NCBI GenBank assembly: GCA_031370645.1
Contig: JANMQV010000151.1
Span: 1-64,000, forward strand
Source of the DNA: Candidatus Eiseniibacteriota bacterium
GTDB taxonomy: Bacteria; Eisenbacteria; RBG-16-71-46; SZUA-252
Direction: 5' to 3'
Length of the DNA: 64,000 nucleotides
In this document: piece after piece, positions 8,879 to 24,590 of the stretch
How positions within the stretch are numbered: position 1 is the first letter of the stretch
How the letters are laid out: each line of letters begins with the position of its first letter
The notes under the pieces: model-generated
Told to the model about the DNA's origin: nothing
The model's database searches: none
Seen by the model: the letters and a program-made list of their open reading frames with translations, nothing else
Program-made: the position numbers and the translations under genes

Positions 8879-10732
8879 ATGTGCGGGATTGCCGGCGTCT
8901 ACGCGCTCACGGAGCGCCCTCCCGACCCCGCGTGGGGAACCCTCCTCGCGCGGGCCCTTCGTCATCGCGGCCCCGACGGGAGCGGCGTCTACCACGACGA
9001 CCGCGTCGTCCTGGCGCACACGCGCCTCGCCATCATCGATCTCTCCGATGCCGGACGCCAACCGATGGCGTCCGCCGACGGCCAGCGCCAGCTGACCGTG
9101 AATGGCGAGATCTACAATCACGCCGAGATCCGCCCGTCGCTCGAGGCGGAGGGCGCGCGGTTCCGCTCCCGCTCCGACACCGAAGTTCTGTTGGAACTCC
9201 TCGCCCGCCATGGCGCCGCCGGCCTCGAACGAGTTCGCGGCATGTTCGCCTTCGCCTATTACGATCGTGGGGAGGGGACGCTCCTCCTGGCGCGCGATCG
9301 CCTCGGCAAGAAGCCGCTGCTCTACGTTCGGACACCGGAGTTCGTCGCGTTTGCGTCCGAGGCCGCGGCACTTCTCTCGCTCCCCTTCGTTCACGCGGCG
9401 CTCGACCGGGAAGCGCTCCGCCCCTATCTCCACTATCTCTACGTCCCGGCGCCGGCGACGCTGCTCGAAGGGATTCAGAAGCTCCCGCCGGCGTCGCTCC
9501 TTCAGCTTTCCCCAGCGGCCGCCGGCGGCGTCGGCTGCGTGAAACCATACTGGGCGCTCCCCGACGTCGATCCGGACGCGCGCCCCGACGCGACGTGGCG
9601 GCGGACGCTCGACGAGCGGCTCGAGGAGGCGACGCGTCTTCGCACGGTGAGCGACGTGCCGATCGGGCTCTTTCTCTCCGGCGGGATCGATTCGAACGTC
9701 GTGCTGGAGCGGCTTCATCACGCGGGGCATCGCCCGATTCAGGCGTTCACCGTCGGATTCGAGGGACTTCCCGACGAGCGGGCAGTCGCGGCCGAAGGAG
9801 CAGGGCGCTACGCCGACGCCCACACGCTCCTTCCCGTTCGCGCCGACGTGGCGTCGGAACTACCGGCCATCCTCCGGCACTTCGGAGAGCCGCTCGGGGA
9901 TAGCGCCGTCGTCACGACCTACCTGGTCGCGCGCGAGGCGGCGAAGCACGTGAAGGTGATCCTGAACGGCGACGGAGGCGACGAGCTCTTCGGCGGCTAC
10001 GCGCGCTACCCCTTCGCGCGCCGCGCCGACATCGCCCGGTCGCTCCCCGGAGGCGGAGCCCTCCTTCACGCGCTCTACAAAGGCCGCCACCGGCTCGATC
10101 CCGTCTGGCCCGCCCTCGATCGCCGCGATTTCGGCGCGGCGGCGCGATCGCTTTCCTCGGTGTTGCCGCCATCCGACGAGCGCGCGCTGCTTCGCGCGCC
10201 TCTCGCGGAGGGGGCGAACGCCATCGCGACACGAACCGGTACCGGACTCGCCGCCGCCGTCGCTGCGTGGGACGCGGGCGCCTACCTCCCGGACGATCTC
10301 CTCGTGAAAGTCGATGTCGCGTCGATGGCGCACGCGCTCGAGAATCGTTCGCCCTTCCTCGATCACCGCCTCTGGGAGCACGTGGCGGCACTTCCGCCGG
10401 CGCGACGATTCCACTGGAGACGAACGAAGCCGCTCCTCCGCGACTACGCGCGTGGAAGGATCCCGGCCGCCGTGCTCCGCGCGCCGAAGCAGGGATTTCA
10501 ACTTCCGCTCGAGGCGTGGCTTCGCGGCCCGCTCCGCGGCTGGTCCGAAGCGCTCCTTCGCGACCCTCAGGCCACCGGGACGCTCTATCGAGAGGGAGCC
10601 ACCTCGCGTCTTCTCGACGCGTTTCACGCGGGAAGCGCGGACGTGATGGCGCCCCATCGCATCTGGTCGCTCGCGGTACTGGAGCTCTGGGCGCGCGAAT
10701 TTCACGTGGCGATGCCTCGGGACATGGGATGA
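8879..10732 (+). CDS. asnB: Asparagine synthetase (glutamine-hydrolysing) family amidotransferase, probably glycan-modifying
   Basis: MCGIAG Ntn start at 8879; HRGPD, NGEIYN, LSGGIDS, GDGGDELFGGY, RSPFLD motifs. Confidence 0.92.
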   Translation: MCGIAGVYALTERPPDPAWGTLLARALRHRGPDGSGVYHDDRVVLAHTRLAIIDLSDAGRQPMASADGQRQLTVNGEIYNHAEIRPSLEAEGARFRSRSDTEVLLELLARHGAAGLERVRGMFAFAYYDRGEGTLLLARDRLGKKPLLYVRTPEFVAFASEAAALLSLPFVHAALDREALRPYLHYLYVPAPATLLEGIQKLPPASLLQLSPAAAGGVGCVKPYWALPDVDPDARPDATWRRTLDERLEEATRLRTVSDVPIGLFLSGGIDSNVVLERLHHAGHRPIQAFTVGFEGLPDERAVAAEGAGRYADAHTLLPVRADVASELPAILRHFGEPLGDSAVVTTYLVAREAAKHVKVILNGDGGDELFGGYARYPFARRADIARSLPGGGALLHALYKGRHRLDPVWPALDRRDFGAAARSLSSVLPPSDERALLRAPLAEGANAIATRTGTGLAAAVAAWDAGAYLPDDLLVKVDVASMAHALENRSPFLDHRLWEHVAALPPARRFHWRRTKPLLRDYARGRIPAAVLRAPKQGFQLPLEAWLRGPLRGWSEALLRDPQATGTLYREGATSRLLDAFHAGSADVMAPHRIWSLAVLELWAREFHVAMPRDMG

Positions 10733-10736
10733 GGGC

Positions 10737-11777
10737 ATGACGGCGAACGTCCCCGATCCCGCTTCGACGCACGCGCGCCTCGATGCGCTCCGGCACTCGG
10801 CCCTCACGCCGCTCGTGAGCGTGCTCCTCTCGACGCGGAACGGATCGCGTTACCTCGAAGAGGCGCTCGGGAGCCTGGCGGCGCAGACGTATCCGGAACT
10901 CGAGATCGTGGCGGTCGACGACGGATCAAACGACTCCACGCCCGACATCCTCGCTCGGTTCGTCGCGCGCCATCCCCGCACTCGCCTCCTCCGGACGGAG
11001 GGTGTCGGGCTCGCGGCCGCGCTCCACCGCGCGGCGGGCGAAGCAACCGGCGCCTACTTGGCGAGGCAGGACGACGACGACCGTTCCCACCCCGAGCGAA
11101 TCGCGCGACAGATCCGATTCTTTCAAGCGCACCCCGAGGTCGGCGTGCTCGGAACGGCGGCGACGCGGATCGATGAAGGCGGGAAGGCAATCGGCCCCTA
11201 CCCGGTGCCGAGCACGCGCGCCGAAATCGCCGCCGCGCTTCGGCGTGGGACGCCGTTCGTTCATGGTTCGGTCATGATGCGCCGCGAAGTCTACGACGCC
11301 TCGGGAGGGTACCGCGCGGCGTTTCAGGCGGCCCAGGATGTCGATCTCTGGCTTCGAATCCCCAAGGGGATCGGATTCGTCAACCTCCCCGAGCCGCTCT
11401 ATGAATGGCGAGAGCACCCGGGCGGAGTGTTCGCGAGAGCGCGCAACCGGCAGCTCTTCTTCGCCGCGGTCGCCCGCGTGTTCGCGGAGGAGCGCCGCGC
11501 GAGCGGCGCCGATTCGATCGCGCTCCTGGCATCCGCGGAATCTCCGGAGGATTTCTTCGCGCGCTACCCGCGCGCCGACCGCGCGCTCCTTCGCCTCGGC
11601 GAACTCCAGGTGCGCGAAGGACGCACCACCGAAGCGCGCGAACTCTTGCGGCGCGCCATGCGCTCGCCCCGCTCACTGGCCCCATCGCTCCTTTGGTGGG
11701 CGCTCTCGGTTCCCGTCGCCTGGTCGCCTCGGGGAAGACGCGCGGCGGCCGCTTCGAAGGGCGAGCGAGCCCGATGA
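10737..11777 (+). CDS. Glycosyltransferase family 2
   Basis: PLVSVLL…VDDGSND…ARQDDDD…QDVDLWLR. Confidence 0.88.
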   Translation: MTANVPDPASTHARLDALRHSALTPLVSVLLSTRNGSRYLEEALGSLAAQTYPELEIVAVDDGSNDSTPDILARFVARHPRTRLLRTEGVGLAAALHRAAGEATGAYLARQDDDDRSHPERIARQIRFFQAHPEVGVLGTAATRIDEGGKAIGPYPVPSTRAEIAAALRRGTPFVHGSVMMRREVYDASGGYRAAFQAAQDVDLWLRIPKGIGFVNLPEPLYEWREHPGGVFARARNRQLFFAAVARVFAEERRASGADSIALLASAESPEDFFARYPRADRALLRLGELQVREGRTTEARELLRRAMRSPRSLAPSLLWWALSVPVAWSPRGRRAAAASKGERAR

Positions 11778-12829
11778 ATGTCCTTCTCGTCGCGGGGGTC
11801 GACCTCTCGCTCCCGGGCGGGCTCGAGACGCACGTCCTCGAACTCGCTCACGGGCTCGGAGCGCGCGGCCATCACGTCGACATCCTCGCCCGCGCGAGTC
11901 GGGAGCTCCCCGGCCCGGCGCTTCGGCTCGTCGATCGCTTCGGCGATGGGGCCTACGACATCGTCCACCATCACGGCGGCCTGTGGGTGTCCGCATGGAA
12001 CGCGGCGATCGACACGACAGCGGCCACGGGCCGCGCGCGCTATCTCCGCACCTTCCATTTCTCGGTCGCGGCGAAGATGGGCGTCTACCTCCGCATGGGG
12101 CGGATCCGCACGCTCTTCAATCCGGGGAATCATCGCGCACTCCGCGACGAGCGGACTTCGCTCGGGCGCGGGCCGCTCCACATCGCCGTCTCCCGCGCGC
12201 TCCGCGATGAATTGGTGCGCTACCACGGCGCGCCGAGGGAACTCTTCGAGTCGATTCCGAACGGCGCCTCCTTCGCGCAGCCCCGTCTCGGCCGCGCGGC
12301 TTGGCGGGAGCGAAAGGGAATTCCACCGGAGGCGCCGCTCCTCCTCACGATCGGCCGCGACGACTACGTGAAGGGGTTCGACCTCCTCGCGCGGGCGTGG
12401 TCGGCGCCGAACGCTCACCCGCCCGGCGCTATCTGGGTCTCGGTGGGTGGTGCCAAGCCAGGGCGTTCGGGCGATCGGATCTCGACCGGACCGATCGCCC
12501 CCTCCGAAGTAACCGAATGGATCCACGCCGCCGACCTCGGCGCGTTTCCTTCGTACTACGAAGGGGGAGGGATCGCCCTCGCCGACATGCTCGCGGGCGG
12601 CCTTTACGTGCTGACTCATGCGGTCGGCGTGGCCCCGGAGGCCGTCCGCCCCGGCGAGAACGGGGAATTCGTGCCGCGGAGGCCCGATGCGTGGAGCGCG
12701 GCCCTCGCCCGCACGTTGGCAGCGCCTCCGCGCCCGACCGGGCCGGGACTCCCGCCCGAATGGAGCTGGGAATCGATGGTGGAACGGGTGGAGCGCGTCT
12801 ACCGGAGGCTCCGCCCCGATTCCGCGTAA
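11774..12829 (+). CDS. Glycosyltransferase family 4
   Basis: ATGA overlap at 11774; GGLETHV, IPNG, KGFDLL, FPSYYEGGGI motifs. Confidence 0.82.
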   Translation: MNVLLVAGVDLSLPGGLETHVLELAHGLGARGHHVDILARASRELPGPALRLVDRFGDGAYDIVHHHGGLWVSAWNAAIDTTAATGRARYLRTFHFSVAAKMGVYLRMGRIRTLFNPGNHRALRDERTSLGRGPLHIAVSRALRDELVRYHGAPRELFESIPNGASFAQPRLGRAAWRERKGIPPEAPLLLTIGRDDYVKGFDLLARAWSAPNAHPPGAIWVSVGGAKPGRSGDRISTGPIAPSEVTEWIHAADLGAFPSYYEGGGIALADMLAGGLYVLTHAVGVAPEAVRPGENGEFVPRRPDAWSAALARTLAAPPRPTGPGLPPEWSWESMVERVERVYRRLRPDSA

Positions 12830-12869
12830 CCGCGCCCGCCGAGCCGGTTTCTGCTAGACTCAGAACGCG

Positions 12870-14108
12870 ATGCGCATCCTATTTCTGACCTCTCGGATGC
12901 CGTCCCCGCCTGTGGGGGGCGACCGATTCCGCGTTTATCATTTGCTCCGCACGGCGGCCGAAGCGGGCCACCGCATCGACCTCGTCACGTTCGATGACGG
13001 CCGGAGCGACGTCTCCGCGTTGGAGCCGCTTCGCCGCTTCACCTCGAGCTATGAAATCGTGCACCAGCCGAAGCTCGTCTCGTGGTGGCGCGCCGCGCGC
13101 GCGCTTCCGACGCGCCTCCCTCTTCAGGCTGCCTACTACCGTTCCGAAGCGATGAGCCGCCACGTGGCCCGGGCGTTCGACCGAAATCCTCCCGACGTGG
13201 TCTACACGCACCTCTTTCGCATGGCGCCCTACGCGCTCGCCGAGCGGGAACGCCGTGACGCGCGCTGGATCCTCGACCTGACCGATGTCATTTCGGCGGG
13301 GATCGAGCGCTCGCTTCCCTACCGGAGCGGACCGCAGCAGTGGCTCTACCGGGAAGAGGGAAGGCGGATCGCTCGCTATGAGGCGCTGGTGGCACCGCGC
13401 TTCGACGACTGCTGGGTGATCAGCGAAGCCGAGGCACGCGCGCTCGGCGCCATCGCGCCGCGTGCGTCGATCCGCGTCGTCCCGAACGGATTCGAGCCGG
13501 AGCGAAACATCGTTCCACCAGCGCGCGATTCGGCCTCGCTCCTCTTCTTCGGAAATCACGACGTGCTCCACAATCGCGACGCGGCGCGGTTCCTCGCCAT
13601 GGACATTCTCCCACGCGTGCGCGCCTCCGTTCCCGGCGCCACGCTCGATATCGCCGGAAAGGGGGCCGAGGGGCTCGGCGGCTGGGTGCGCCGTCCCGGC
13701 GTCCGCGTCCTCGGATTCGTTCCCGATCTCGACCGTGAATTGCGGCGCGCCGCTCTGTTTGTGGCGCCGCACCGCTTCGCAGCCGGCGTTCAGAACAAAG
13801 TGCTCCAGGCTCTATCCGCCGGCACTCCGGTCGTGACGACACCGGTCGTCCACCAAGGTCTCGCTCCAGCGCCCGACGACGTTCTCTGCGTCGCCGAGGG
13901 CGCCGCCGCGATCGCCGATCGGGTGGTGGCGCTCCTCCGCGATCCGGTCGAGGCGGCGCGCCTCGGAGAGCGAGGGCGCGTCTGGGCATGCTCGCGTTTC
14001 AACTGGCGCGAGTCGCTTGCGGCGTTCGAGGAGGGGAGTTCCGCCGCGGCTTCGGAAGAGGGAGGGCCTGTCGCGGCGCCCGTTGCGGTCGCCGGCTCGC
14101 TCGCTTGA
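12870..14108 (+). CDS. Glycosyltransferase family 4
   Basis: MRILFLTSRMPSPPVGGDRFR; AGVQNKVLQALSAGTPVVTT. Confidence 0.88.
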   Translation: MRILFLTSRMPSPPVGGDRFRVYHLLRTAAEAGHRIDLVTFDDGRSDVSALEPLRRFTSSYEIVHQPKLVSWWRAARALPTRLPLQAAYYRSEAMSRHVARAFDRNPPDVVYTHLFRMAPYALAERERRDARWILDLTDVISAGIERSLPYRSGPQQWLYREEGRRIARYEALVAPRFDDCWVISEAEARALGAIAPRASIRVVPNGFEPERNIVPPARDSASLLFFGNHDVLHNRDAARFLAMDILPRVRASVPGATLDIAGKGAEGLGGWVRRPGVRVLGFVPDLDRELRRAALFVAPHRFAAGVQNKVLQALSAGTPVVTTPVVHQGLAPAPDDVLCVAEGAAAIADRVVALLRDPVEAARLGERGRVWACSRFNWRESLAAFEEGSSAAASEEGGPVAAPVAVAGSLA

Positions 14109-15115
14109 CCGGAGCGCCGCCGTTCCTCCTCGTCGCGCCCCTCTCCTTCGGCGCGGCGCTCCTCTTCACTCCGCTCGTCCGCGCCCTCGCGCGGCGGACC
14201 GGCTATCTCGATCATCCAGACGAGCGAAAACCCCACCTCGAGCCGACGCCGCTCCTCGGCGGCTTGGCCGTCTTCGGCGCGCTCGTGGTCGGTCCGCTCC
14301 TCGCGCGGCTCCTCGTGGGAGCGCCGATCGGGATGCCGGCGCCGGGCGTCCTCCTGGGCGGCGCGCTCTCGCTCCTCCTCGGCCTCGTGGACGATCGCCG
14401 GCCGATGCGCCCTCTCGGCAAACTGATCGGACAGCTCGCCGTCGCGATTTCGCTCGTCGTGTGGGGCGGCGCGCCGCACATCGTGGCGGAACAGCCGCTC
14501 CTCGCGCTGGCCGCCATCGTCGCCGTCGTGTCGCTTTTGAACGCGGTCAATTTCCTCGACGCCATGGACGGCATCGTGAGCGCACTCACTCCGGTGACGG
14601 GACTCGGATTCGTGGCCTTGGCGCTCGTGCACGGGGCCGCCGTCGATCTGGCGCTCGCCTGGGGCGCTGTGGGAGCGGCCGCGGGATTTCTCGTCTACAA
14701 CGCGCCTCCGGCGCGCATCTTCCTCGGTGACGCGGGGAGCCACGTGCTCGGCTTCGTCCTTGCCACGCTCTCCCTCCAAGCGCTCGATTCCAGCATCTCG
14801 TGGCCCCACGTCGCGGCCCTCCTCGTGCTGCTCGCCTACCCCCTGTTCGACGTGATCTTCGTCATCGTCACCCGCCTTTTGGCGAGGCGTCCCATCCATG
14901 TGGGAGGGGTGGACCACACCACGCATCGACTTGGAAGGATTTGTGGACGGTGGGGGACCGTCGCGGCGATTACCGCCGCGGGGGTGCTCAGCGCGGGGCT
15001 CGGAACGTGGCTTTGGGGGGTGAAAAGCGACCTCATCGCATTCCTCGCAGTCTCAATTTTTGGGCTTGGATACGCGGTTTTTGGGGTCTGGCTGGGACGA
15101 ACAAGTCCCACCTAG
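14105..15115 (+). CDS. WecA/TagO (MraY-like) undecaprenyl-phosphate sugar-1-phosphate transferase
   Basis: TTG at 14105 overlaps upstream TGA; DHPDERKPH..PTPLLGG, GLVDD, NAVNFLDAMDG, IFLGDAGS, DHTTHRL. Confidence 0.85.
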   Translation: MTGAPPFLLVAPLSFGAALLFTPLVRALARRTGYLDHPDERKPHLEPTPLLGGLAVFGALVVGPLLARLLVGAPIGMPAPGVLLGGALSLLLGLVDDRRPMRPLGKLIGQLAVAISLVVWGGAPHIVAEQPLLALAAIVAVVSLLNAVNFLDAMDGIVSALTPVTGLGFVALALVHGAAVDLALAWGAVGAAAGFLVYNAPPARIFLGDAGSHVLGFVLATLSLQALDSSISWPHVAALLVLLAYPLFDVIFVIVTRLLARRPIHVGGVDHTTHRLGRICGRWGTVAAITAAGVLSAGLGTWLWGVKSDLIAFLAVSIFGLGYAVFGVWLGRTSPT

Positions 15116-15126
15116 CGGTTCGACAC

Positions 15127-15155
15127 TTGACAAACAAGTTTTACAGATGTACCTT
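15127..15155 (+). promoter_or_regulatory. sigma70-type promoter TTGACA-N17-TACCTT
   Basis: Perfect -35 at 15127-15132, -10 at 15150-15155 in an AT-rich gap before the GAF activator. Confidence 0.7.
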
Positions 15156-15166
15156 TCATTTTCGTA

Positions 15167-16897
15167 ATGGCCACACGGCACTACCTGCCGGGCGAGAACG
15201 AGCGAGGCAAGGACGCGATGTCGCCACTTCCCGACCCCCTTCGAGAACCTGAAGCCTCTGGCGGCCGTATCGAGCAGGATCCGCTCGATCGGTTGAACGA
15301 CGGGCTGACGCAATGGGAGCGCGAGCTCCTGGCGGAGCCGTCCACCCAGTCGCGGCCCCGCGCGCCCCATCTCGGACGCTACAAAGACCTTCTCGATGCC
15401 AGCCGCTCCGTTACCGGCACGCTCGACCCGAACGAACTCCTCCTCCGCGTGGTGGACGCCGTCATTCGCATCGCCGGCGCCGACCGCGGCTTCCTCATGC
15501 TCATGCACGAGGAAGGAAAGCTCCAATTCGAGATCGCCCGTAGCAAGGACGAGACGACGCTCCCGCCGAGCGAATTCCAAATCTCCTTCGGCATCGCCGA
15601 GGAAGCCGCGCATCGCCGCGAGACCGTCTGGGTTCCCGACGCCGTCGGCTCCTCGCTCTTCCAGGACCGGAAGAGCGTCCGCGCGCTTTCGCTCCGCACG
15701 GTCGTCGCCATTCCGATTCTGAATTCGGGGCGCGTTCTCGGCGTCCTCTACATCGACTCCCATTCCATCACGCACGAATTCTCGACCGAGGACATCGCGC
15801 TTCTCGAAGGGTTCGCCGCTCAGGTGGCGATCGCGCTCGAGAACGCCCGCGTCCACGAGTCGCTCCGCGACACGAAGAACCGCCTCGAGATCGAAAATCT
15901 GAATCTGCGCCGAGCGCTGAAGGAAGACGTCCGGTACGGATTGCTCGTCGGGCGGAGCCCCGCCATGGGGCAGGTCGTGGATTTGATTGAAAAGGTGATT
16001 CCGACGCAAGTCACCGTGCTGATCCACGGCGAGACCGGAACCGGTAAGGAAGTCGTGGCGCGCGCCATTCACCTGAACGGTCCGCGGAAGGACGAGAACT
16101 TCATCGCCGTGAATTGCGGCGCCGTACCCGAGGCGCTTCTCGAAAGCGAGCTCTTCGGGTACAAGAAGGGAGCCTTCACCGGCGCCAACGAAGACCGCGT
16201 CGGACTCTTCGAGGCGGCCGACAAGGGGACGCTCTTCCTCGACGAGGTCGGGGAGATGCCGGCGAGCCTTCAGGTGAAGCTTCTCCGCGTGCTCCAGGAC
16301 TCTCACATTCGGCGCGTGGGCGACACCGTCTCGCGGAAGGTCGACATCCGGCTCATCGCCGCGACGAATCGCGATCTCCGCGCCGAGGTCGACGCCGGTC
16401 GCTTCCGTCAGGACCTCTTCTACCGCATGAACGTCGTGCCGGTCACGCTGCCGCCGCTTCGCGATCGCGGCGACGACATTCTCCTCTTCGCGCAGCATTT
16501 CCTGGAGGCGTCGGCCAAGCGCCAGCGGAAGTCGATCGTCAGTTTTACGCCCGAGGCGCGCGAGCTTTTGCTCCGGCACCCGTGGCCGGGAAACGTTCGC
16601 GAGTTGGAGAACGCCATGGAACGCGCGGTCGCCCTCTCCGACGACGGCGTGGCCCTCGAGCCGCATCTCTTCGGACTCGGCGCATCCGTTGCGCGCCGCT
16701 GGGACGGGCAGCACTCGCTCCGCGAGACGATGGAGGCCGTCGAAGCCGAAACGATTCGCGAGGCGCTTCGCCAGAGCGAATCGAACGTCTCTCGCGCGGC
16801 GCGCGCCCTCGGCGTGAGCCGCCAGCATCTTCACAACCGGATGAATTTCCACGGCATCCGGCGTTCGCGAATTTTGAACGAGTCCGGGGGTAAGTGA
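15167..16897 (+). CDS. sigma54-dependent enhancer-binding protein (GAF + AAA+ + Fis-HTH); alternative start 15218
   Basis: GAF region, [37 protein letters not shown]-terminal HTH. Confidence 0.92.
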   Translation: MATRHYLPGENERGKDAMSPLPDPLREPEASGGRIEQDPLDRLNDGLTQWERELLAEPSTQSRPRAPHLGRYKDLLDASRSVTGTLDPNELLLRVVDAVIRIAGADRGFLMLMHEEGKLQFEIARSKDETTLPPSEFQISFGIAEEAAHRRETVWVPDAVGSSLFQDRKSVRALSLRTVVAIPILNSGRVLGVLYIDSHSITHEFSTEDIALLEGFAAQVAIALENARVHESLRDTKNRLEIENLNLRRALKEDVRYGLLVGRSPAMGQVVDLIEKVIPTQVTVLIHGETGTGKEVVARAIHLNGPRKDENFIAVNCGAVPEALLESELFGYKKGAFTGANEDRVGLFEAADKGTLFLDEVGEMPASLQVKLLRVLQDSHIRRVGDTVSRKVDIRLIAATNRDLRAEVDAGRFRQDLFYRMNVVPVTLPPLRDRGDDILLFAQHFLEASAKRQRKSIVSFTPEARELLLRHPWPGNVRELENAMERAVALSDDGVALEPHLFGLGASVARRWDGQHSLRETMEAVEAETIREALRQSESNVSRAARALGVSRQHLHNRMNFHGIRRSRILNESGGK

Positions 16898-17892
16898 CCG
16901 ACCTCGCCTCGCTCCGCCTCGCGTCGCTCCGGGCCATCCTGATGCAAAGCGACGCGGAACTCCGCGCGCATCTTCCCGAGTATTTCCTCACCTACTACAA
17001 GCATCTCAACATCCTCCGAAATCCCGCCCGCATCGAGCACGTCTTCCAGAAGGGCCGGGAGATGTTCGAGTACCTGGAGGCGGACGGAAAGGAGATCCTC
17101 GACCTCGGCGCCGGGTTCGGCATCGAGGCACTCCTCGTCGCGATTTACGGAGCGAAGAAGGTGATCGCGACCGAGATCGATCACGACATGGTGGCGGTCG
17201 GCACCTACCTCGCCGGCGCGATCACGCCCAAGGTCGAGCACTTCGAGTCGCGCTACGGCGACGGCATCGCCATGGAATTTCCCGCCGCCTCCTTCGACGG
17301 CGTCATGGCGAACTGCGTCATCTCGCACGTGCGCGACCTGGAGGGATTCCTGAGCGAGGCGCACCGGCTCCTCCGGCCGGGCGGAATCTTTTTTCTCAGC
17401 GACGAGAACAATTCGCTCTACCTCCCGGCTCGGTCGCGGCGCCGGAGGGGGTGGAACGACATGGAGCGGGAGCCGGGCGGTCCTTATTTCGCGGCCCGCT
17501 TGGCCATGGTGAAGGAACGCTTTCCCGAGCTGAAGGGCGCCGCGCTCTTCACCGCCGTGCGGGCGACCCGCGGCCTCTGGGGCGATACGGTGGCGGAGGG
17601 AGTGCGCGAACTCCAGGCGAAGGGGCGGCTCTCGGCTCCTCCGGAGTTCCTCTATCGCGACCCGCGGGACGGGCAGTATCCAGAACGGGAGTTGAATCCC
17701 TTTTGGATGATGGAACGATTCCGGGCCGCGAAGTTGGAGCCAGAACTCCTCCCGGCCTTTTTCTCCCGGGGAATCGAAGTCCATCTTCGCCAGGTGGTGA
17801 AGGACGTGCTCCGCTTCTTCTGCAGCCGCTGGCCTGTGCTCTCCGTCTATGTTTGGCCCATTATGAGGCTTCGGGGCCGAAAAGCCCGTTGA
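16894..17892 (+). CDS. Class I SAM-dependent methyltransferase
   Basis: ILDLGAGFG motif I, FPAASFD, HRLLRPGG; GTGA-coupled to the activator. Confidence 0.85.
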   Translation: MTDLASLRLASLRAILMQSDAELRAHLPEYFLTYYKHLNILRNPARIEHVFQKGREMFEYLEADGKEILDLGAGFGIEALLVAIYGAKKVIATEIDHDMVAVGTYLAGAITPKVEHFESRYGDGIAMEFPAASFDGVMANCVISHVRDLEGFLSEAHRLLRPGGIFFLSDENNSLYLPARSRRRRGWNDMEREPGGPYFAARLAMVKERFPELKGAALFTAVRATRGLWGDTVAEGVRELQAKGRLSAPPEFLYRDPRDGQYPERELNPFWMMERFRAAKLEPELLPAFFSRGIEVHLRQVVKDVLRFFCSRWPVLSVYVWPIMRLRGRKAR

Positions 17893-17917
17893 CACCCTCG
17901 TAGCACCCGCCTAGGCT
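17889..17917 (+). promoter_or_regulatory. sigma70-type promoter TTGACA-N17-TAGGCT for the four-gene membrane operon
   Basis: -35 contains the upstream TGA stop; -10 ends 8 nt before GTG 17926; no SD. Confidence 0.65.
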
Positions 17918-17925
17918 CCGCTTCC

Positions 17926-19119
17926 GTGCGACTGACCGCGTCGAGCCTAGCCGTCCTGACGCTTCTGGTGCTCGCGAGGCCCGCCGGGGCTGTCGCGCCC
18001 GTCACAACACCACCTCCACCTCCCGAACTTCCTGCCCCCACCGACTTCGCCGCCGTTGACCGGCCCGGAGACGGCGGCGGCGCGATCCTCCTTACCTGGA
18101 AGGACCCCGAAGCGCTCCCTGCGGGAACCGTGCTCGAAGTCCGGCGCGCGGAGCCGCCCGCCGATGAGTTCACGGCACTGAAGACCGTGGCCCCCGGGGC
18201 GCAGCGCTACGTCGATACCTCGGCGAAGGACGGGATGACCTACCGCTACGAACTCCGCGTTCGGGGCGAAGAGACGCCCGATTCGCTCGGCATTGCGGGC
18301 GCCGTCGGCCCCGCGCTCGTGAGCGAACCGATCTCGCCGCATGACAATTGGTTCCGCAACGAGCGGATGAACTCGCTCATCGCCTCGATCCTCTTCATCA
18401 CCTTCATCCTGGCCTCGATCGCCTACGCTCGCTCCGGAAAGCCGATCTTCATTCGCCGCATCGCCGGCTTGAATGCCATCGATGAAGCGATCGGCCGCGC
18501 CACCGAGCTCGGGAAGAAGGTGCTCTACATTCCCGGCATCCAGAGCATGGACGAGATCCAGACGATCGCGAGCATCGCGATCCTGGGGCACGTGGCGCGC
18601 GCCACGGCCCGATACGGCACCGACCTCGACGTTCCCAATAAGGACCCGCTCACCTTCGTCTCGGCGCGCGAGGCGGTCCAGTCGGCCTATTTGTCCGAAG
18701 GTCGGCCCGACCTCTTCCGCGACGACATGGTCCATTACGTCACCTACGATCAGTTCGCCTTTACGGCCGCCGTCTCCGCGCAGATGACGCGCGAGAAACC
18801 GGCGGCGATCTTCCTGGTCGGGTACTTCTTCGCGGAATCGCTCATCCTAGCCGAGACCGGGCAGTCGACCGGCGCCATCCAGATCGCCGGGCAGGCGGAT
18901 CCGACGCAGCTCCCGTTCTTCGTCGCCACCTGCGACTACACGCTCATCGGCGAGGAGCTCTACGCCGCGAGCGCTTATCTTTCGCGGGAGCCGGTGCTCC
19001 TCGGCTCCATGCGCGGGCAGGATATCGCCAAGGCGGTGCTCCTCGCGGTGGGGATCCTCGGGATCATCGCGGTCAGCTTCGGCGCCACCTGGGTCCTCGA
19101 TCTGGTGAAGACCCAATGA
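17926..19119 (+). CDS. Uncharacterised membrane protein: signal peptide, Pro-rich linker, FN3-like domain, TM, DUF6754-like domain, C-terminal TM
   Basis: FN3 pattern (ILLTW…YVDTS…TYRYELR); IRRIAGLNAIDEAIGRATE…FFAESLILAE…QLPFFVATCDYTLIGEELYAASAYL recalled as DUF6754. Confidence 0.75.
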   Translation: MRLTASSLAVLTLLVLARPAGAVAPVTTPPPPPELPAPTDFAAVDRPGDGGGAILLTWKDPEALPAGTVLEVRRAEPPADEFTALKTVAPGAQRYVDTSAKDGMTYRYELRVRGEETPDSLGIAGAVGPALVSEPISPHDNWFRNERMNSLIASILFITFILASIAYARSGKPIFIRRIAGLNAIDEAIGRATELGKKVLYIPGIQSMDEIQTIASIAILGHVARATARYGTDLDVPNKDPLTFVSAREAVQSAYLSEGRPDLFRDDMVHYVTYDQFAFTAAVSAQMTREKPAAIFLVGYFFAESLILAETGQSTGAIQIAGQADPTQLPFFVATCDYTLIGEELYAASAYLSREPVLLGSMRGQDIAKAVLLAVGILGIIAVSFGATWVLDLVKTQ

Positions 19120-19916
19120 ACCTCGAATTCGGCCGCGTGACGCTCGTCGTTCTCTTCGCGATCATCCCCATCGTGGGGATCGTGCTCGGGATGCGCGCGC
19201 CGGCGCTTCGAAGCAAGATTCCGCTCCTCGTCGCGTTCTTCGCCGGCCTCATCCCGATCTTCTCGATGTACATCCCGAAGAAATTCCTCTCCGGCGAAAG
19301 CGGCATGAGCCCTCGTCTCGATCAGTGGCTCATCATCGTGGCCGGCTTCGCGCTCCTGCTCGGAATCACAAACGTCATCTCGAACGGCGCTCGAAAAATT
19401 TCCCGCCGGGACCGCGGCTGGCCCTACGCCATCGTGCTCTTGACGGGACTCTTCGTCATGGGTGGGTTCGGGATCTACGCGGCCGTCTCGGGGCAGGGGA
19501 TGGGGTTCCTCCCGAATGGAACGCCGACACCGTTTCGCTGGGTGGAGAGCACGGTGTTCCAGCCGCTTCAGTCGACCATCTTCGCGCTCCTCGCCTTCTT
19601 CATGGCGAGCGCCGCGTTTCGCGCCTTCCGCGCTCGGAACACCGAGGCGACGATTCTCCTCATCGCAGGCGCCATCGTGATGACGGGCCGCGTGCCGCTT
19701 CTCGAGTTACTGGCCGCACCGTTCCCGCCGCTTCAGCCCGCGGCGGCCGCCGCGAGCCAGTTCATGGGGAAGGCGACGGAGTGGATCATGGACACGCCGA
19801 ACGGGGCCGCCCAGTCGGGAATCATCATCGGCGCCGCACTCGGCGCCGGCTCCATGGCGATCCGCGTGATTCTCGGCATCGAACGCGGCTACCTCGGCCT
19901 CGGGAAGGGGGAGTAG
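19116..19916 (+). CDS. Uncharacterised polytopic membrane protein (operon subunit B)
   Basis: ATGA overlap; about 6-8 hydrophobic segments; STIFALLAFFMASAAFRAFRAR and GIIIGAALG..AIRVILGIER. Confidence 0.8.
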   Translation: MNLEFGRVTLVVLFAIIPIVGIVLGMRAPALRSKIPLLVAFFAGLIPIFSMYIPKKFLSGESGMSPRLDQWLIIVAGFALLLGITNVISNGARKISRRDRGWPYAIVLLTGLFVMGGFGIYAAVSGQGMGFLPNGTPTPFRWVESTVFQPLQSTIFALLAFFMASAAFRAFRARNTEATILLIAGAIVMTGRVPLLELLAAPFPPLQPAAAAASQFMGKATEWIMDTPNGAAQSGIIIGAALGAGSMAIRVILGIERGYLGLGKGE

Positions 19917-19917
19917 C

Positions 19918-20796
19918 GTGCAAGCCTTCTTCCGGTTCCTTCTCGCGCTCGACCGTCGCTGGATCTTTCTCCTCGTTCTCTTGAGCGTGACGATCCCGAT
20001 CGTCGTCCCGATCGGGCTTCCCGTCACGACAACTTCCTCCACGCGAAACGCCTTCGAGTTCGTGGAGGCGCTGAAGCCCGGAGATCTCGTCTGGCTCTCG
20101 ATCGATTACGGTCCGTCCTCGGCGCCGGAAAACGATCCGATGGCGGAGGCGTTTCTCCGGCAGTGTCTGCTCAAGAAGGTCCGCGTCATCGTGACCGCCC
20201 TCTATCCGCTCGGCGGCCTCGGTCTCGCGAACGCGGTGGTGGCGAAGATCACGGCCGAGTATCCGGAGGCGAAATACGGCGTCGACTACATCAACCTCGG
20301 ATATAAGGACGGTGCCGCGGCGGTGATGCGGACGCTGGGGCAGGACATCACGTTGTCGTTTCCGACCGACGTGAACGGGCGCCCCGTCTCCGAATTTCCG
20401 ATCATGCAGGGCCTTCGCACGATCCGACAGCTCGACCTCGTCTTCACCGCGGCGACCGGCCTCATCGGGGAGTGGTGGATCACGCAGGTCCACTCCCAGT
20501 TCGGCACGCCCGTCATCATCGGGCCGACCGCCGTGAGCGCGCCGAAGTACTACGCCTTCATCAATTCGGGGCAGCTGGTCGGGATGCTGGGCGGGATGAA
20601 GGGCGCGGCCGAGTACGAAAAACTTCTCGCGGCCAAGCACGAATCGCTCGGGAGGTTCTACCGAGGCACACACGCCTTCACGGCCACGAAGGGGATGGAC
20701 GGGCAGACCGTGCTCCACGGCGTCATCCTGGCGCTCATCGTGCTTGGGAATCTGGCGTTCTTCATGACGCGCGGCAAGAAGGCGGGGGCGGCGTAA
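19918..20796 (+). CDS. Uncharacterised membrane-anchored protein (subunit C): TM, soluble alpha/beta domain, TM
   Basis: 1-nt gap after B; DRRWIFLL, DYGPSSAPE, YGVDYINLGY, SGQLVGMLGGMKGAAEYE. Confidence 0.8.
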   Translation: MQAFFRFLLALDRRWIFLLVLLSVTIPIVVPIGLPVTTTSSTRNAFEFVEALKPGDLVWLSIDYGPSSAPENDPMAEAFLRQCLLKKVRVIVTALYPLGGLGLANAVVAKITAEYPEAKYGVDYINLGYKDGAAAVMRTLGQDITLSFPTDVNGRPVSEFPIMQGLRTIRQLDLVFTAATGLIGEWWITQVHSQFGTPVIIGPTAVSAPKYYAFINSGQLVGMLGGMKGAAEYEKLLAAKHESLGRFYRGTHAFTATKGMDGQTVLHGVILALIVLGNLAFFMTRGKKAGAA

Positions 20797-20798
20797 CG

Positions 20799-21431
20799 AT
20801 GGAATTCGTCGGAATCGGGACCTGGTTGGCCGCCTTCCTCACGCTGGCCGCCCTCTCCTTCCTCTACAAGGACAATCCGTTCTTCCGTTTCGCCGAGAGT
20901 CTTTTCGCCGGCGTCTCGCTCGGCTACTACGTGGGAATCGTGCTGAACCAGACGCTCGTCCCGAATCTCTTCGAGCCGCTCGCGAAGGACTTCAAGACGA
21001 ACTGGGATCTGTTGGTTCCCGGGCTCTTGGGGCTGATGCTCTACGTGCGGTCGGTGCCGCGCATCGGTTGGATCTCGCGCTACGCGCTCGGGATCTACGT
21101 CGTCTACTACATCGGGGTCGATTTCACGCGGCGGATCCATGGGGAGGTGATGCCGCAGATCGCGCGGACGATTCGGCCGCTCCAGGCCTTCGACGGGCCG
21201 ACGCTCGTCTCGCTCATCTTCATCATCGGGGTCTTCAGCGTGCTGATCTACTTCTTCTTCTCGAAGGAGCAGAACGCGGTCACGCGGCCGATCGCCCGGC
21301 TCGGGACGTGGTTCCTCATGGTCTCCTTCGGCGCCGCCTTCGGGTTCACCGTCATGGGGCGCGTGGCGCTCCTGATCGGCCGGCTCAACTTCCTCATTCA
21401 GGACTGGATTTACCCGACGATCGGTCGGTAG
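20799..21431 (+). CDS. Uncharacterised polytopic membrane protein (subunit D)
   Basis: ATG at 20799, 2 nt after C; SFLYKDNPFFRFAE..FAGVSLG, LIYFFFS, FLMVSFGAAFGFTVMGR. Confidence 0.8.
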   Translation: MEFVGIGTWLAAFLTLAALSFLYKDNPFFRFAESLFAGVSLGYYVGIVLNQTLVPNLFEPLAKDFKTNWDLLVPGLLGLMLYVRSVPRIGWISRYALGIYVVYYIGVDFTRRIHGEVMPQIARTIRPLQAFDGPTLVSLIFIIGVFSVLIYFFFSKEQNAVTRPIARLGTWFLMVSFGAAFGFTVMGRVALLIGRLNFLIQDWIYPTIGR

Positions 21432-22185
21432 TCCCCCTCGGTTTCACGCCGTCCTTCTCGCCCGCCGCCTCCGCCCGGTTGCGCGTTTCGTCCGTTTCGA
21501 AAAGCTCCGACGACGCCCGGAGATTCACCATCGGGACCGTCATCTTGTTTCCGGCCGGGTAGTCGGTCGTCACCACGTCTCGCAGGGCCGAGACGCGGTG
21601 GGTGAGGTTCGCGATCGCCTCGGTCGCGGCGCGGATCCGCTGGACCTTGTCCCGGACTTCGGGCGCCAGGTTCGGCAGGACGTGCAGGAGTTGCGCGTTC
21701 CCCTGAATCACCTGGAGCGGGTTGTTGATCTCGTGGTTCAAGGCCACGGCCATGGCCGAGACGGCCTTCATCCGCTCCGTGCGGAGCCGTTCTTCCGAAG
21801 CCTGATGAAGCGCGAGGGCGTTTCGGACCTTGATCGGCAGCTGAAAGCGGATGTCCCAGTCCGTGAGCGGCTTCATGAAGTAGTCGACCGCGCCCAATTC
21901 CAGACTCCGCTCCACGTCCTCCGGGGAGGTCGAGGCGCTCGCCACGATGACCGGAAGGTCGCGAAGCCGTTCGTTCGCGCGCATGGAGGTGAGAACGTCG
22001 AATCCATTCGGAGGCGGCATCATGAGATCGAGGAGAACCAGATCGATCGCTTCTCCGGCCAGGTGCCGCAGGGCCTCGTGGCCGTCGTCCGCCTCGAAAA
22101 ACTCGTAATCGCCCTTCCGGAGAACCATCCGGAGGAGCTTCCGGTGGTGCGGCTCGTCGTCAACGAGCAGGATGCGATGCAGCAT
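21394..22185 (-). CDS. Response regulator receiver domain + HisKA dimerisation/phospho-acceptor domain (no ATPase)
   Basis: ILLVDD…LLDLMMP…YFMKP, then NHEINNPL H-box and a short tail. Confidence 0.85.
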   Translation of the reverse strand: MLHRILLVDDEPHHRKLLRMVLRKGDYEFFEADDGHEALRHLAGEAIDLVLLDLMMPPPNGFDVLTSMRANERLRDLPVIVASASTSPEDVERSLELGAVDYFMKPLTDWDIRFQLPIKVRNALALHQASEERLRTERMKAVSAMAVALNHEINNPLQVIQGNAQLLHVLPNLAPEVRDKVQRIRAATEAIANLTHRVSALRDVVTTDYPAGNKMTVPMVNLRASSELFETDETRNRAEAAGEKDGVKPRGTTDRSSGKSSPE

Positions 22186-22588
22186 GGCTTCCCTTCCCGA
22201 TGAGGGCCTTCACCCGGTCGATCAGATCGTCCGCGCTCAGGATCGGCTTGGAGACGTAGTCGTTCGCGCCGGAGTCGGCGAGGAATTTTTCCCGCGACCC
22301 CTTCATGGCGTGCGCCGTGGCCAAGATCACCGGAACCCGGCTCGCTCGCGGGTCGCCCTTCAATATCCGGGTGATCGCGAGGCCGTCCACGGGCGCTCCT
22401 TGATACGTGCTGTTCGAGAGCGAGACATCCATGATCACGAGATCCGCGCGGCCCTCGCGCGCCTCCTCGATCACGTAAGCGGGGTCCTCGGTCACGACAA
22501 CTTCGAAGCCGGCCTTCCGAGCGAGAATCAGTTGGAAGAGCTTCGCGTTCATCGGATCGTCTTCGACGACGAGGATGCGCGGTTTCAT
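22160..22588 (-). CDS. Single-domain response regulator (DivK/CheY-like)
   Basis: ILVVEDD, IMDVSL, TAHAMKG, YVSKP. Confidence 0.9.
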   Translation of the reverse strand: MKPRILVVEDDPMNAKLFQLILARKAGFEVVVTEDPAYVIEEAREGRADLVIMDVSLSNSTYQGAPVDGLAITRILKGDPRASRVPVILATAHAMKGSREKFLADSGANDYVSKPILSADDLIDRVKALIGKGSHAASHPAR

Positions 22589-22601: not shown

Positions 22602-24590
22602 TTACGCCTGCGATCCGGCCGCCTCGGCGGCCGGAGGCGCGGGGGCGCTTTCGACGGGGAAGGAGAGGCGAACCCGAGTTCCGCGGTTCGCCCCGTCGCT
22701 TTCGACGCTGATCGAACCGCCCATCTTTTCGACGAGTCCCTTCGAGATGGCGAGGCCGAGACCGGTGCCCGGCCTTCGCCGCGAGTACGACTCCTCGCGC
22801 GACGCGTATTTGGTGAAGAGCTTCGACTGGCGGTCGAGCGGAATGCCGATGCCGGTGTCGGCCACGACGACGCAAACCTCCATGCGATCGTCGTCCCGCC
22901 ACGCGCGAACCGAGACCTCGCCGCGATCGGTGAACTTCACCGCGTTTCCGACGAGGTTCAGCATGACCTGGCGGAAGCGAGCGGAGTCGTGCGGGAACGT
23001 GAGGTCGCTCTCGGGGAGTTCGATCCGAACTTCCAGCCCCTTCCCGTCGGCCTCCGGCGCCACGGCGGCGACCGCCGCGCGCACCGCGTCCCGCCCGTCG
23101 CCCCGTTCCACGGTCAGGTCGAGACGCCCGGCCTCCATCTTGGCGAGATCGAGGATGTCGTTCAGGAGCCCGAGGAGATGCTCCGCGCTCAGCCGCACCG
23201 AATTGGCGAAGGAGCGGACCTCTTCGGCCGATTCGGCCGACCCCTGTTCCAGAAGCGAGGCGAAGCCGATGACGCTGTTGAGCGGCGTGCGAAGCTCGTG
23301 CGACGTGTTCGCGAGGAATTGCTGCTGCGTCTGTCGCGCTTCCTCGAGTCGCGTGTTCGCTTGCCGCAACTGATCGTTCAGATGGCGCTGGGCCTGGGCG
23401 TTCACGCGGAGCGCCTCTTCTCGCTCGCGGCGCTCGGTGACGTCGCGGGCGATCACGAGGCAGGCGCTTCCCCCGCTCTCGGGATGGGCGACCGCCGTGA
23501 CCATGGCGTCGCACGGGACCTGCCGGCCGTCGGACGCGCGCAGACGAATGGCGACTTGCACCGATTTCCCGTCGGCGACGAGGTTCCCCGGCAGGAACGG
23601 CCGGCCCGAAGCCTCCTCGATCGCGAACTCGGAAAGGGCGCGCCGCCGAAGCGTTCCGGGTGCGGCGCCGATCGCGCGCTCCGCCGTCTCGTTCGCGTCG
23701 GCCACGCGCCCCTCTTCGTCGAGCAGGAGAACAAGCTCGCTGCTTCCGCGGAGGTAGGTCGCAAGCATCCGGTCGCGCCGCTCCATCTTCAGTCGCTTGA
23801 GTCCCACGGCGAGTTGCGAGGCCGTCCACCGAACGAGCGCCAGCTGGTCCCCCTCGAAGCCCCTCCGTCGCGGCACGAAGCACTGGAGCACCCCCACCGC
23901 CTCGCCGCGATCGGTGAGCGGTACGGAGACGACGATCGGATCGGCGCCGAGTCCCACCGTCGATGCGGGGAACGCGTAGCGGGGGCCCGAGCCGGGATCG
24001 CGCGAGACAATCGTATCGACGAGCCAGGCGGCGCGCGTCGCGGGGGAGTGGGCGTTCGGTCCGATCGGATCGGGCGCCAACTCCGCCGTCGCGCCGTCCG
24101 GAAGCCCGCGCGTGGCGGTGAGGCGGAAGGCGCCGTCCCGCTCATCCCTCCGATAGATGGCCCAGAACGACAGGCCCGTTCCCTCGGCAATGACGTCGAG
24201 CGCGCAGCGGACGAGCTCATCCTCGCGATCGAGGCGCTCCAGCGTTTCGCCGACGCGGTAGATCGTGAGCTGCGCGCGGAGGTTTCGGATCCGTTCCATC
24301 TCGGCGAAGCGGCGACGGAAGGCGAAGAGGCCGAGAAGCGCCGTGGCCGCGACGACGGCGGTCCCGAAAAAGATCCTCGCGTGGTGGCGAACTTCGACGG
24401 GGACGCCGAGCGCCTCTCCCGGCGTGAGCTGATACGCCGTGTAGCCGAGTACGGCCATGAGGAACGCGACGCCGAACGCGTAGCGTCGCGCGAGGGAATA
24501 GCGAAGTTGCTCTCGGCTTTCGGCCGCCGACGGCAGCGGGGCCTGAATCGACTTCTTCTGCTTCGTCGGACGCGCCAAGTACCCCTCCAT
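22602..24590 (-). CDS. Membrane sensor histidine kinase (2 TM, GAF, PAS, HisKA, HATPase)
   Basis: SHELRTPLN H-box, NLVGNAVKFT N-box, DTGIGI and GTGLGLAI G-boxes. Confidence 0.92.
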   Translation of the reverse strand: MEGYLARPTKQKKSIQAPLPSAAESREQLRYSLARRYAFGVAFLMAVLGYTAYQLTPGEALGVPVEVRHHARIFFGTAVVAATALLGLFAFRRRFAEMERIRNLRAQLTIYRVGETLERLDREDELVRCALDVIAEGTGLSFWAIYRRDERDGAFRLTATRGLPDGATAELAPDPIGPNAHSPATRAAWLVDTIVSRDPGSGPRYAFPASTVGLGADPIVVSVPLTDRGEAVGVLQCFVPRRRGFEGDQLALVRWTASQLAVGLKRLKMERRDRMLATYLRGSSELVLLLDEEGRVADANETAERAIGAAPGTLRRRALSEFAIEEASGRPFLPGNLVADGKSVQVAIRLRASDGRQVPCDAMVTAVAHPESGGSACLVIARDVTERREREEALRVNAQAQRHLNDQLRQANTRLEEARQTQQQFLANTSHELRTPLNSVIGFASLLEQGSAESAEEVRSFANSVRLSAEHLLGLLNDILDLAKMEAGRLDLTVERGDGRDAVRAAVAAVAPEADGKGLEVRIELPESDLTFPHDSARFRQVMLNLVGNAVKFTDRGEVSVRAWRDDDRMEVCVVVADTGIGIPLDRQSKLFTKYASREESYSRRRPGTGLGLAISKGLVEKMGGSISVESDGANRGTRVRLSFPVESAPAPPAAEAAGSQA

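Follow-up and report, generated by a model that had tools for sequence, protein, structure and literature searches.

Among the bacterial membrane systems described to date, the group II energy-coupling factor (ECF) transporters are built on the principle of a shared energising module that serves several membrane modules. Other points of comparison are provided by the complexes of the Rnf/Nqr type, by the Trk, Ktr and Kef systems, and by the PF13941 proteins GlmL/MutL, accessory to B12-dependent glutamate mutase, and Or-4, associated with ornithine degradation. The present study deals with a group of four adjoining genes, hereafter A, B, C and D, located within positions 17889-21431 of a 64,000-nucleotide stretch of DNA (the window) from a Candidatus Eiseniibacteriota bacterium (assembly GCA_031370645.1, contig JANMQV010000151.1, positions 1 to 64,000 of the forward strand). 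Gene A encodes a clear member of DUF6754 (PF20539), a family to which no function has been assigned. An earlier reading of the window (the original prediction) had taken the four products for a novel, ATP-independent membrane machine, e.g., a secondary uptake system. Our analysis suggests that A, B, C and D very probably belong to one membrane complex, and that this complex may be served by a second, single-copy set of four genes, V, W, X and Y. A literature search, from whose reach most subscription journals were excluded, found no publication on DUF6754 or PF13941 and nothing relevant on GlmL/ASKHA, and no solved structure, curated family or paper was found for B, C, D, V, W or Y.

The four genes are co-oriented on the plus strand and follow each other almost without interruption, A and B overlapping by 4 nt, B and C being separated by 1 nt and C and D by 2 nt, and they are bounded downstream by a convergent gene; in all these respects the list of open reading frames (ORFs) and the translations agree with the layout first described. 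Three co-linear A-B-C-D sets, 36-51% identical to each other, were detected in the genome by tblastn with A-D. For the survey of other genomes, profiles were built from the three paralogues of each gene and ORFs were taken to begin at the first start after a stop. The survey covers 77 homologous loci, all from metagenome-assembled genomes (MAGs), collected in a scan of one genome per species in which at least 543 relatives were confirmed among 626 pattern matches. All four families occur, in the order A-B-C-D, in 64 of the 77 loci. The two apparent exceptions to this order are over-extended or split ORFs and, among the 13 incomplete loci, 12 end 225-674 bases past the last detected gene and the other one, L028, contains 300 masked bases. 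Two or three A-B-C-D sets, mostly arranged head to tail, are found in 14 of the 77 loci. Because the order is conserved, the junctions are tight, and paralogous and tandem sets occur, it is very likely that the four proteins physically associate into one obligate four-subunit inner-membrane complex. A multimer prediction in which A (domain 10-266) was scored against B (29-266), C and D gave a score that was undiminished when an unrelated protein replaced C and that therefore carries no weight in either direction as to binding. Both the treatment of the four proteins as one unit and the expected co-location of their homologues in other genomes are borne out, and searches of Pfam, NCBIfam and PDB gave no match to any characterised complex, in agreement with the novelty claimed.

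The distribution of the unit is wide. According to their titles, the loci belong to Eisenbacteria, Latescibacterota, Zixibacteria, Ignavibacteria, Neomarinimicrobiota, Poribacteria, Coatesbacteria, WOR-3, Stahlbacteria, Edwardsbacteria, Fermentibacteria/Aegiribacteria, Nitrospirota, Acidobacteriota, a CSSED10-310 candidate division bacterium and a Bacillota MAG. The statement that such clusters recur in uncultured bacteria agrees with these titles, and its extension to archaea found no confirmation, all 77 titles being bacterial or unclassified. Matches to DUF6754 occur in 39 of 41 relatives, mostly three in each, and in 137 of 151 genomes of the phylum (108 of the 118 of good quality), with one to nine matches per genome, a count that includes one unpublished genome (G048); none was detected in 14 well-known control genomes, and E. 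coli lacks the family. Among 1.84 billion proteins, the DUF6754 profile retrieved 2547 representatives at 50% identity, with E ≤ 1e-30 for 1160, and the profile of D at least 7999 clusters at 90% identity. None of the 120 clusters listed for D carries a Pfam family or a name beyond "hypothetical protein".

A second group of genes repeatedly accompanies this unit. Clustering by BLAST (E ≤ 1e-8) of the ORFs neighbouring the 77 loci delineated four recurrent families, Y (about 375 aa, 19 loci), X (about 614 aa, 17 loci), W (about 133 aa, 12 loci) and V (about 150 aa, 7 loci), which are found in the order V-W-X-Y directly upstream of A-B-C-D or of the first set in a tandem series. In 23 of the 77 loci, which come from Zixibacteria, Ignavibacteria, Nitrospirota, Fermentibacteria, Coatesbacteria and Neomarinimicrobiota, A-B-C-D has one or more of these families as neighbours; this figure is a lower bound, because many upstream flanks are short and the families were set by BLAST clustering at the above threshold. 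In the present genome, V-W-X-Y occurs on contig C32, outside the window, in the order gcvT-gcvH-gcvPA-gcvPB-V-W-X-Y-A-B-C-D-(LplA/LipB-like)-gpmI (C32:9280-23226, i.e., L093:1280-15223). The printed N-terminal sequences of L051, from a Fermentibacteraceae member, also seem to place gcvT, gcvH, gcvPA and gcvPB right upstream of V. The glycine-cleavage neighbourhood was considered as a functional clue and set aside as more likely to be inherited synteny, because the first residues of the ORFs in other phyla point to aroK/aroB, ribosomal or unrelated neighbours; alternatively, it may reflect a link to glycine/lipoate metabolism.

The association extends to genomes as a whole. The same 39 of the 41 relatives hold both DUF6754 and Y, the other two (G025 and G033) being devoid of both. 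Among the 151 genomes of the phylum, 135 contain both and 13 neither, so that the two agree in 148; these counts are descriptive, related genomes not being independent. The 13 genomes devoid of both span six families, which argues against a single loss. Y gives a single match in most genomes, and most of the multiple matches listed are fragments of one gene. In five genomes of other phyla, each represented by one record (C1), 1, 1, 6, 2 and 6 matches to DUF6754 stand against one Y each, and X (PF13941) is single in four records and split into pieces in the fifth. The two Poribacteria carry A, X and Y at distances of megabases from one another.

Among the four partner proteins, X is the most informative. 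It matches PF13941 (MutL/GlmL) over its full length (E 1.5e-129, 433.2 bits) and falls below the cut-offs of the corresponding NCBIfam models (NF040745, 234.6 against 475; NF040744, 220.3 against 600; TIGR01319, 170.1 against 204); from these scores, X therefore appears as a separate branch of the GlmL/MutL family. The motif ATDCGSTTTK is kept in all 15 X sequences listed from the N-terminus, and X of C32 also carries VDIGGATTD and VGSGGV. We take these three to be the phosphate-1, phosphate-2 and adenosine motifs of the ASKHA fold, and X is presumably an ASKHA-family ATPase. A search of PDB with X returned nothing. V is a small protein with two hydrophobic segments, and hence two putative transmembrane (TM) helices, and it weakly resembles YcxB (E 0.018). 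For W, which is also small, no match was obtained.

Y, a soluble protein of 376 aa in this genome, belongs to no Pfam family, its match to Biotin_lipoyl (E 0.023) lying below the cut-off, and its only PDB match is RraA (E 0.0078). Its sequence identity between phyla is 51-56%, and 103 columns are invariant among 14 sequences. In the Atlas clusters closest to Y, 11-30% of the members are labelled RnfC_N and 10% NQRA_N, Biotin_lipoyl labels also occur on a minority, and one cluster is named KOW; the N-terminus of Y may accordingly be a barrel-sandwich domain. These labels, and the fact that B and D are of the size of RnfA/E and probably opposite to each other in topology, suggest a cofactor-free relative or analogue of Rnf/Nqr, in which Y would correspond to the N-terminal part of NqrA/RnfC, B and D to NqrD and NqrE, and C to NqrC. 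Such a correspondence is highly improbable, since B and D give no Pfam match to the Rnf-Nqr family, C is Rossmann-like instead of FMN_bind, no invariant Cys is listed in the alignments of B, C or D, and the genome possesses a separate PF02508 locus. Comparison of B and D with RnfE and RnfA of the same genome by hhalign gave probabilities of at most 3.8%, in a test of low power where the RnfE-RnfA control itself reached only 37.9%. The separate locus (C34:76428-81003; L095 and L096) contains two PF02508 matches, with RnfG-like and RnfD-like ORFs alongside, as judged by eye.

Within the membrane unit, A consists of a signal-peptide-like N-terminus, an outer beta-rich region of about 100 aa, a first TM helix, a Rossmann-like domain and a second TM helix. 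The DUF6754 family corresponds to the part extending from the first to the second TM helix (residues 139-392; E 7.4e-114, 379.6 bits against a cut-off of 27). This organization was anticipated by the original prediction, with the exception of the FN3 domain assigned to the outer region, and its DUF6754 part agrees with the AlphaFold2 (AF2) model. The outer region may be FN3-like. No Pfam family matches residues 1-138 even at E ≤ 10, and the best PDB match of the N-terminal part is an ephrin-receptor chain at chance level (E 0.31); pairwise comparison gave a weak match (E 4e-4) to the repeats of P0207, a homologue carrying PF00041. The outer part is the variable part of the family. It is absent from some homologues, such as the 266-aa A of the C203 paralogue, and consists in others of FN3, PQQ-type beta-propellers or RHS, the longer homologues carrying PF00041, PF13360, PF13570, PF01011, PF05593 and others, always N-terminal to DUF6754. 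This range of outer domains points to macromolecules, and not to small solutes, as partners. In L028 (7509-9896), DUF6754 seems to be fused with Peptidase_S49, an architecture discarded as an artefact, since a masked run had been read through as X in the translation; the same caution applies to other N-containing loci.

The DUF6754 domain, by comparison with this variable outer part, is 46-60% identical to that of A across phyla and contains 33 invariant columns in 66 sequences, including R46, R60, T62, E63, E173, E179, Q188, D206, E212 and E213. The AF2 model of this part of A (predicted local distance difference test, pLDDT, 91.8) displays a long N-terminal helix, an alpha/beta domain and a long C-terminal helix, and the model of C (pLDDT 94.1) the same succession; each alpha/beta domain is made of five to six strands. 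The TM-Rossmann-TM organization of C, also seen in an alignment of 54 homologues, thus agrees with what had been proposed for it. No match to PDB was found for A by sequence, nor by Foldseek with its model at E ≤ 0.001, and C gave chance-level rows by sequence (E 0.85 or worse) and three low-TM-score Foldseek matches (0.27-0.32). With VIA-align, the closest neighbours of A are Sir2 proteins (Z 10.3, root-mean-square deviation, rmsd, 3.6-3.7 Å over 142-144 residues), followed by LpxB (Z 10.2), MT0777 (9.6), KtrC (9.5) and transhydrogenase dIII (9.3), while those of C are MT0777 (Z 9.7, rmsd 3.7 Å, 139 residues) and KtrA/TrkA (8.8-8.9). The two domains thus have their nearest neighbours in common, all of them generic Rossmann folds.

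The conservation of DUF6754 is nevertheless of a kind typical of active sites, and GT-B half-domains (LpxB, MurG, heptosyltransferases, PseG) are found among the top neighbours of A (Z 9.2-10.2). A membrane-bound enzyme complex that would, for example, make or modify a polymer or lipid of the envelope could thus be envisaged, in which the Arg, Glu, Asp, Gln and Thr residues that are invariant in DUF6754 would form a catalytic or nucleotide(-sugar)-binding site and B and D would hold or flip a lipid-linked substrate; the C203 paralogue, flanked by a polytopic TPR protein and by a polytopic protein with a sub-cut-off F5/8 type C match, would fit such a complex. This explanation is rather improbable, the fold matches being generic, no subunit belonging to a Pfam enzyme family, and the neighbours differing between paralogues and phyla; it also leaves the role of X and Y unexplained.

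B and D are polytopic, as proposed, with about six conserved TM helices in B (alignment of 60 homologues) and about six in D (alignment of 55 homologues), and the Gly/Ala-rich segments quoted for them are present, in the most conserved stretches of both proteins. The residues P150, S165, A166, R169, F171, G239, G243, E256 and R257 of B are invariant, as are N26, E33, Q120, F152, F154, S155, F177, G178, F181, G182, T184, M186 and R188 of D. Across phyla, B, C and D are 32-54% identical. None of the three matches a family above the Pfam cut-off, B giving a sub-threshold match to 7TMR-DISM_7TM (19.8 bits against 29) and C and D none at all, and NCBIfam returned nothing meaningful for A-D. Searches of PDB yielded chance-level rows for B (E 0.41) and nothing for D, and an Atlas search with B retrieved unnamed clusters only. 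B of the window and of at least L017 has an additional hydrophobic segment, some 28 residues long, at its N-terminus (19116-19200), and longer B envelopes point to the same segment in L016 and L018; it is absent in most other phyla.

The topology of the four proteins was deduced from the distribution of Lys and Arg residues in the alignments. A would expose its N-terminal domain on the outer face, its Rossmann-like domain in the cytoplasm and its C-terminus outside, whereas both termini of C would be cytoplasmic and its domain periplasmic. B would possess six conserved TM helices with both ends inside, plus an additional N-terminal helix in the orthologue group of the window, and the six TM helices of D would probably leave both ends outside. 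From these topologies, A/C (TM-Rossmann-TM) and B/D (six TM) appear as two pairs of like architecture and opposite orientation. Comparison of profiles gave no sequence kinship between A and C or between B and D (probabilities of 1.8% and 0.3%), so that the idea of inverted pairs is an argument from architecture.

No ATPase or known enzyme family was found among A-D with Pfam and NCBIfam, as had been noted, and on this ground A-D could be proposed to suffice for a secondary transporter or channel independent of ATP, in which the outer domain of A would capture the substrate and the Rossmann-like domains would act as regulatory gates of the RCK/KTN type. The occurrence of two polytopic subunits of probably opposite topology, as in many transporters, the KTN/RCK domains found (Z 8-9.5) among the folds closest to A and to C, and the fact that the modules of the window and of C203 have no adjoining X/Y are all consistent with such a transporter. 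However, the agreement of DUF6754 and Y over the genomes of the phylum and the frequent adjacency of the partner set speak against a self-sufficient unit, the KTN matches are no better than those to Sir2, GT-B halves or dehydrogenases, and an RCK-type nucleotide sensor makes little sense in a domain of C which is probably periplasmic. The FN3, beta-propeller and RHS domains borne by A also suggest macromolecular partners. An ATP-independent transporter of this kind is consequently unlikely. The term "ATP-independent" is not supported, the modules co-occurring with, and often adjoining, a single-copy set that includes a GlmL/MutL-family ASKHA protein with a conserved ATDCGSTTTK motif, and the term "secondary uptake system" finds no direct support.

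A shared ATPase-like cytoplasmic module serving one to nine membrane modules fits the observations better than an ATP-independent secondary transporter, since V-W-X-Y is single-copy and adjacent to or co-occurring with A-B-C-D and the cytoplasmic domain of A is exceptionally conserved. We tentatively propose a role in energised transport or mechanotransmission at the envelope, in which the shared V-W-X-Y set would drive obligate A-B-C-D modules. The very conserved cytoplasmic Rossmann-like domain of A would dock the shared X/Y module, with X as the likely nucleotide-driven component, and nucleotide-driven changes would reach the periplasmic domain of C and the variable outer domain of A by way of the membrane core that B and D form. 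As an outcome, a substrate would be moved across the membrane or work would be done on an envelope component. A bolder and more doubtful proposal is that V-W-X-Y and its one to nine A-B-C-D modules represent an unrecognised class of housekeeping trans-membrane machines, in which an ASKHA-fold ATPase energises interchangeable modules built from inverted A/C and B/D pairs and equipped with partner-specific outer domains; in such machines, the FN3 or beta-propeller domain on the outside of each module would be directed at a partner of its own, in the envelope or outside the cell.

Several observations weigh against the proposed energised machine. The coupling of A-B-C-D to X/Y is deduced from adjacency and from co-occurrence in genomes that are not independent, and the co-occurrence of DUF6754 and Y is broken in 3 of the 151 genomes, with Y alone in G119 (88% complete) and DUF6754 alone in G145 (81%) and in G094 (98%). 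The module of the window has no X/Y beside it, its neighbours being a sigma-54 activator and a methyltransferase. X falls below the NCBIfam cut-off for GlmL (234.6 against 475) and, to our knowledge, no activity has been demonstrated for any GlmL-family protein. In addition, no classic ion- or substrate-binding signature was recognised in B and D, and the fold matches of A and C are generic (top Z 10.3 and 9.7); for their Rossmann-like domains, an enzymatic or a regulatory role is just as conceivable.

The coordinates of the genes and of their surroundings are collected in Table 1. The window has a G+C content of 64-71%. A promoter of their own had been proposed for A-D, and the reading of the TTGACA-N17-TAGGCT element as a promoter is supported because its hexamers are conserved in orthologues while the spacer varies: GTTGACAC and TAG(G/T)CT are invariant, 17-18 nt apart, in all six orthologous upstream regions. 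In the window, the element (TTGACA at 17889-17894, a spacer of 17 nt, TAGGCT at 17912-17917) shares bases with the stop codon of the methyltransferase gene that precedes A; it was not among the results of a generic sigma-70 scan, which found 0 sites. A sigma-54 promoter, TGACAC-N5-TAGCA at 17890-17905, was also considered. It shows two mismatches, occurs at chance frequency (15 found against 11.4 expected in the window) and has a -12 part that varies among orthologues, and it was rejected in favour of the sigma-70-like element. The GTG start of A is kept across orthologues in the alignment of the upstream regions.

Table 1. Positions of the A-B-C-D genes, of their neighbours in the window and of the paralogous sets in the genome.
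Feature	Position	Strand	Remarks
GAF + sigma-54-interaction + HTH_8 activator	15167..16897		upstream of A
SAM-dependent methyltransferase	16894..17892		upstream of A; 4-nt overlap with activator gene
Promoter-like element TTGACA-N17-TAGGCT	17889..17917	+	sequence read; conservation in orthologues
Gene A	17926..19119	+	397 aa, GTG start; ORF list
Gene B	19116..19916	+	266 aa; ORF list
Gene C	19918..20796	+	292 aa; ORF list
Gene D	20799..21431	+	210 aa; start is an internal ATG of the longer frame 20472-21431; translation
Convergent gene, Response_reg + HisKA (Pfam)	21394..22185	-	overlaps 3' end of D
Paralogous set, C157 (window)			tblastn
Paralogous set, C32	17511-20851	+	tblastn
Paralogous set, C203	13932-11025	-	tblastn

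On the downstream side, the convergent gene encodes a protein made of receiver and HisKA domains which is devoid of a kinase ATPase domain, and is followed on the same minus strand by an ORF of 142 aa (22160-22588) and another of 662 aa (22602-24590), which in translation have the appearance of a stand-alone receiver and of a histidine kinase, respectively. On the upstream side, the methyltransferase gene clusters with ORFs that occupy the equivalent place in L016-L018, the three closest loci, and an activator-like ORF is present in L016 as well. The location of the window module between a sigma-54 activator and two-component genes, together with the variable, binding-type outer domains of A, might evoke a device for trans-membrane signalling or scaffolding, in which the outer domains of A and C would sense the state of the envelope and the DUF6754 domain would report it to the cytoplasm. 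This is very unlikely, since the regulatory neighbourhood is seen only in close relatives (L016-L018), a sensor with four membrane subunits in an invariable order and at least 12 conserved TM helices would be unusual, and no known output domain is present.

The surroundings of the other modules are different. The C203 module (8888-16005, L094) is flanked by a polytopic protein of 680 aa with C-terminal TPR repeats and by a polytopic protein of 774 aa whose F5/8 type C match reaches 25 bits against a cut-off of 28.2, both of which look like large envelope-modifying membrane proteins. A neighbour family of about 156 aa occurs some 3-5 kb downstream of D in L051, L056, L070, L072 and L075 (Fermentibacteria, WOR-3 and Stahlbacteria); by eye, it is ExbD/TolR-like in L051 and L072, where an adjacent ORF of L072 is ExbB-like.

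Near universal in the phylum (137 of the 151 sampled genomes) and not found in the model organisms searched (the 14 control genomes), A-B-C-D is quite possibly, together with V-W-X-Y, part of a larger housekeeping system. Neither a function nor a solved relative is known for any of the eight proteins, despite a degree of conservation usual for core machinery. Working out this machine could bring to light a membrane process at the core of the biology of Zixibacteria, Poribacteria, Nitrospirota, WOR-3, Eisenbacteria and neighbouring groups, and could give GlmL-type ASKHA proteins a first defined role outside B12-mutase operons. If the bolder of the two proposals is true, membrane transport or mechanotransduction in many candidate phyla and in Nitrospirota would be energised according to a principle new to bacteria.

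Compared with the known systems, the A-B-C-D unit resembles the Rnf/Nqr complexes in being a multi-subunit membrane complex with two polytopic subunits of about 200 aa and a TM-anchored periplasmic subunit, to which the peripheral Y would add a barrel-sandwich N-terminus, as suggested by Atlas labels on a minority of members. It differs from them in that no match to PF02508, FMN_bind or a flavin or Fe-S motif occurs in A-D and no redox domain in V-Y. Like the Trk/Ktr/Kef systems, it joins a Rossmann-like domain to a membrane part (Z 8.0-9.5, rmsd 2.8-5.5 Å, 113-139 residues). Unlike them, it shows no sequence match to TrkH/KtrB or RCK in Pfam, its structural matches are tied with those of unrelated Rossmann folds, and the domain of C is probably periplasmic. 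With GlmL/MutL and Or-4, X shares a full-length match to PF13941, and it differs from them by scores far below the NCBIfam cut-offs, by about 120 extra C-terminal residues and by its genomic setting, no mutase genes having been seen in the loci read. Unlike the ABC (ATP-binding cassette) and ECF transporters, neither A-D nor V-Y contains an ABC ATPase (PF00005), EcfT or an S-component family according to Pfam and NCBIfam, and the putative energiser X has an ASKHA fold. The closest parallel in overall organization is nevertheless that of the group II ECF transporters, in that one single-copy cytoplasmic set (X/Y) is confronted with one to nine membrane modules, sometimes unlinked to it, and it is this pairing of A-B-C-D modules with a single-copy V-W-X-Y set that is new here.

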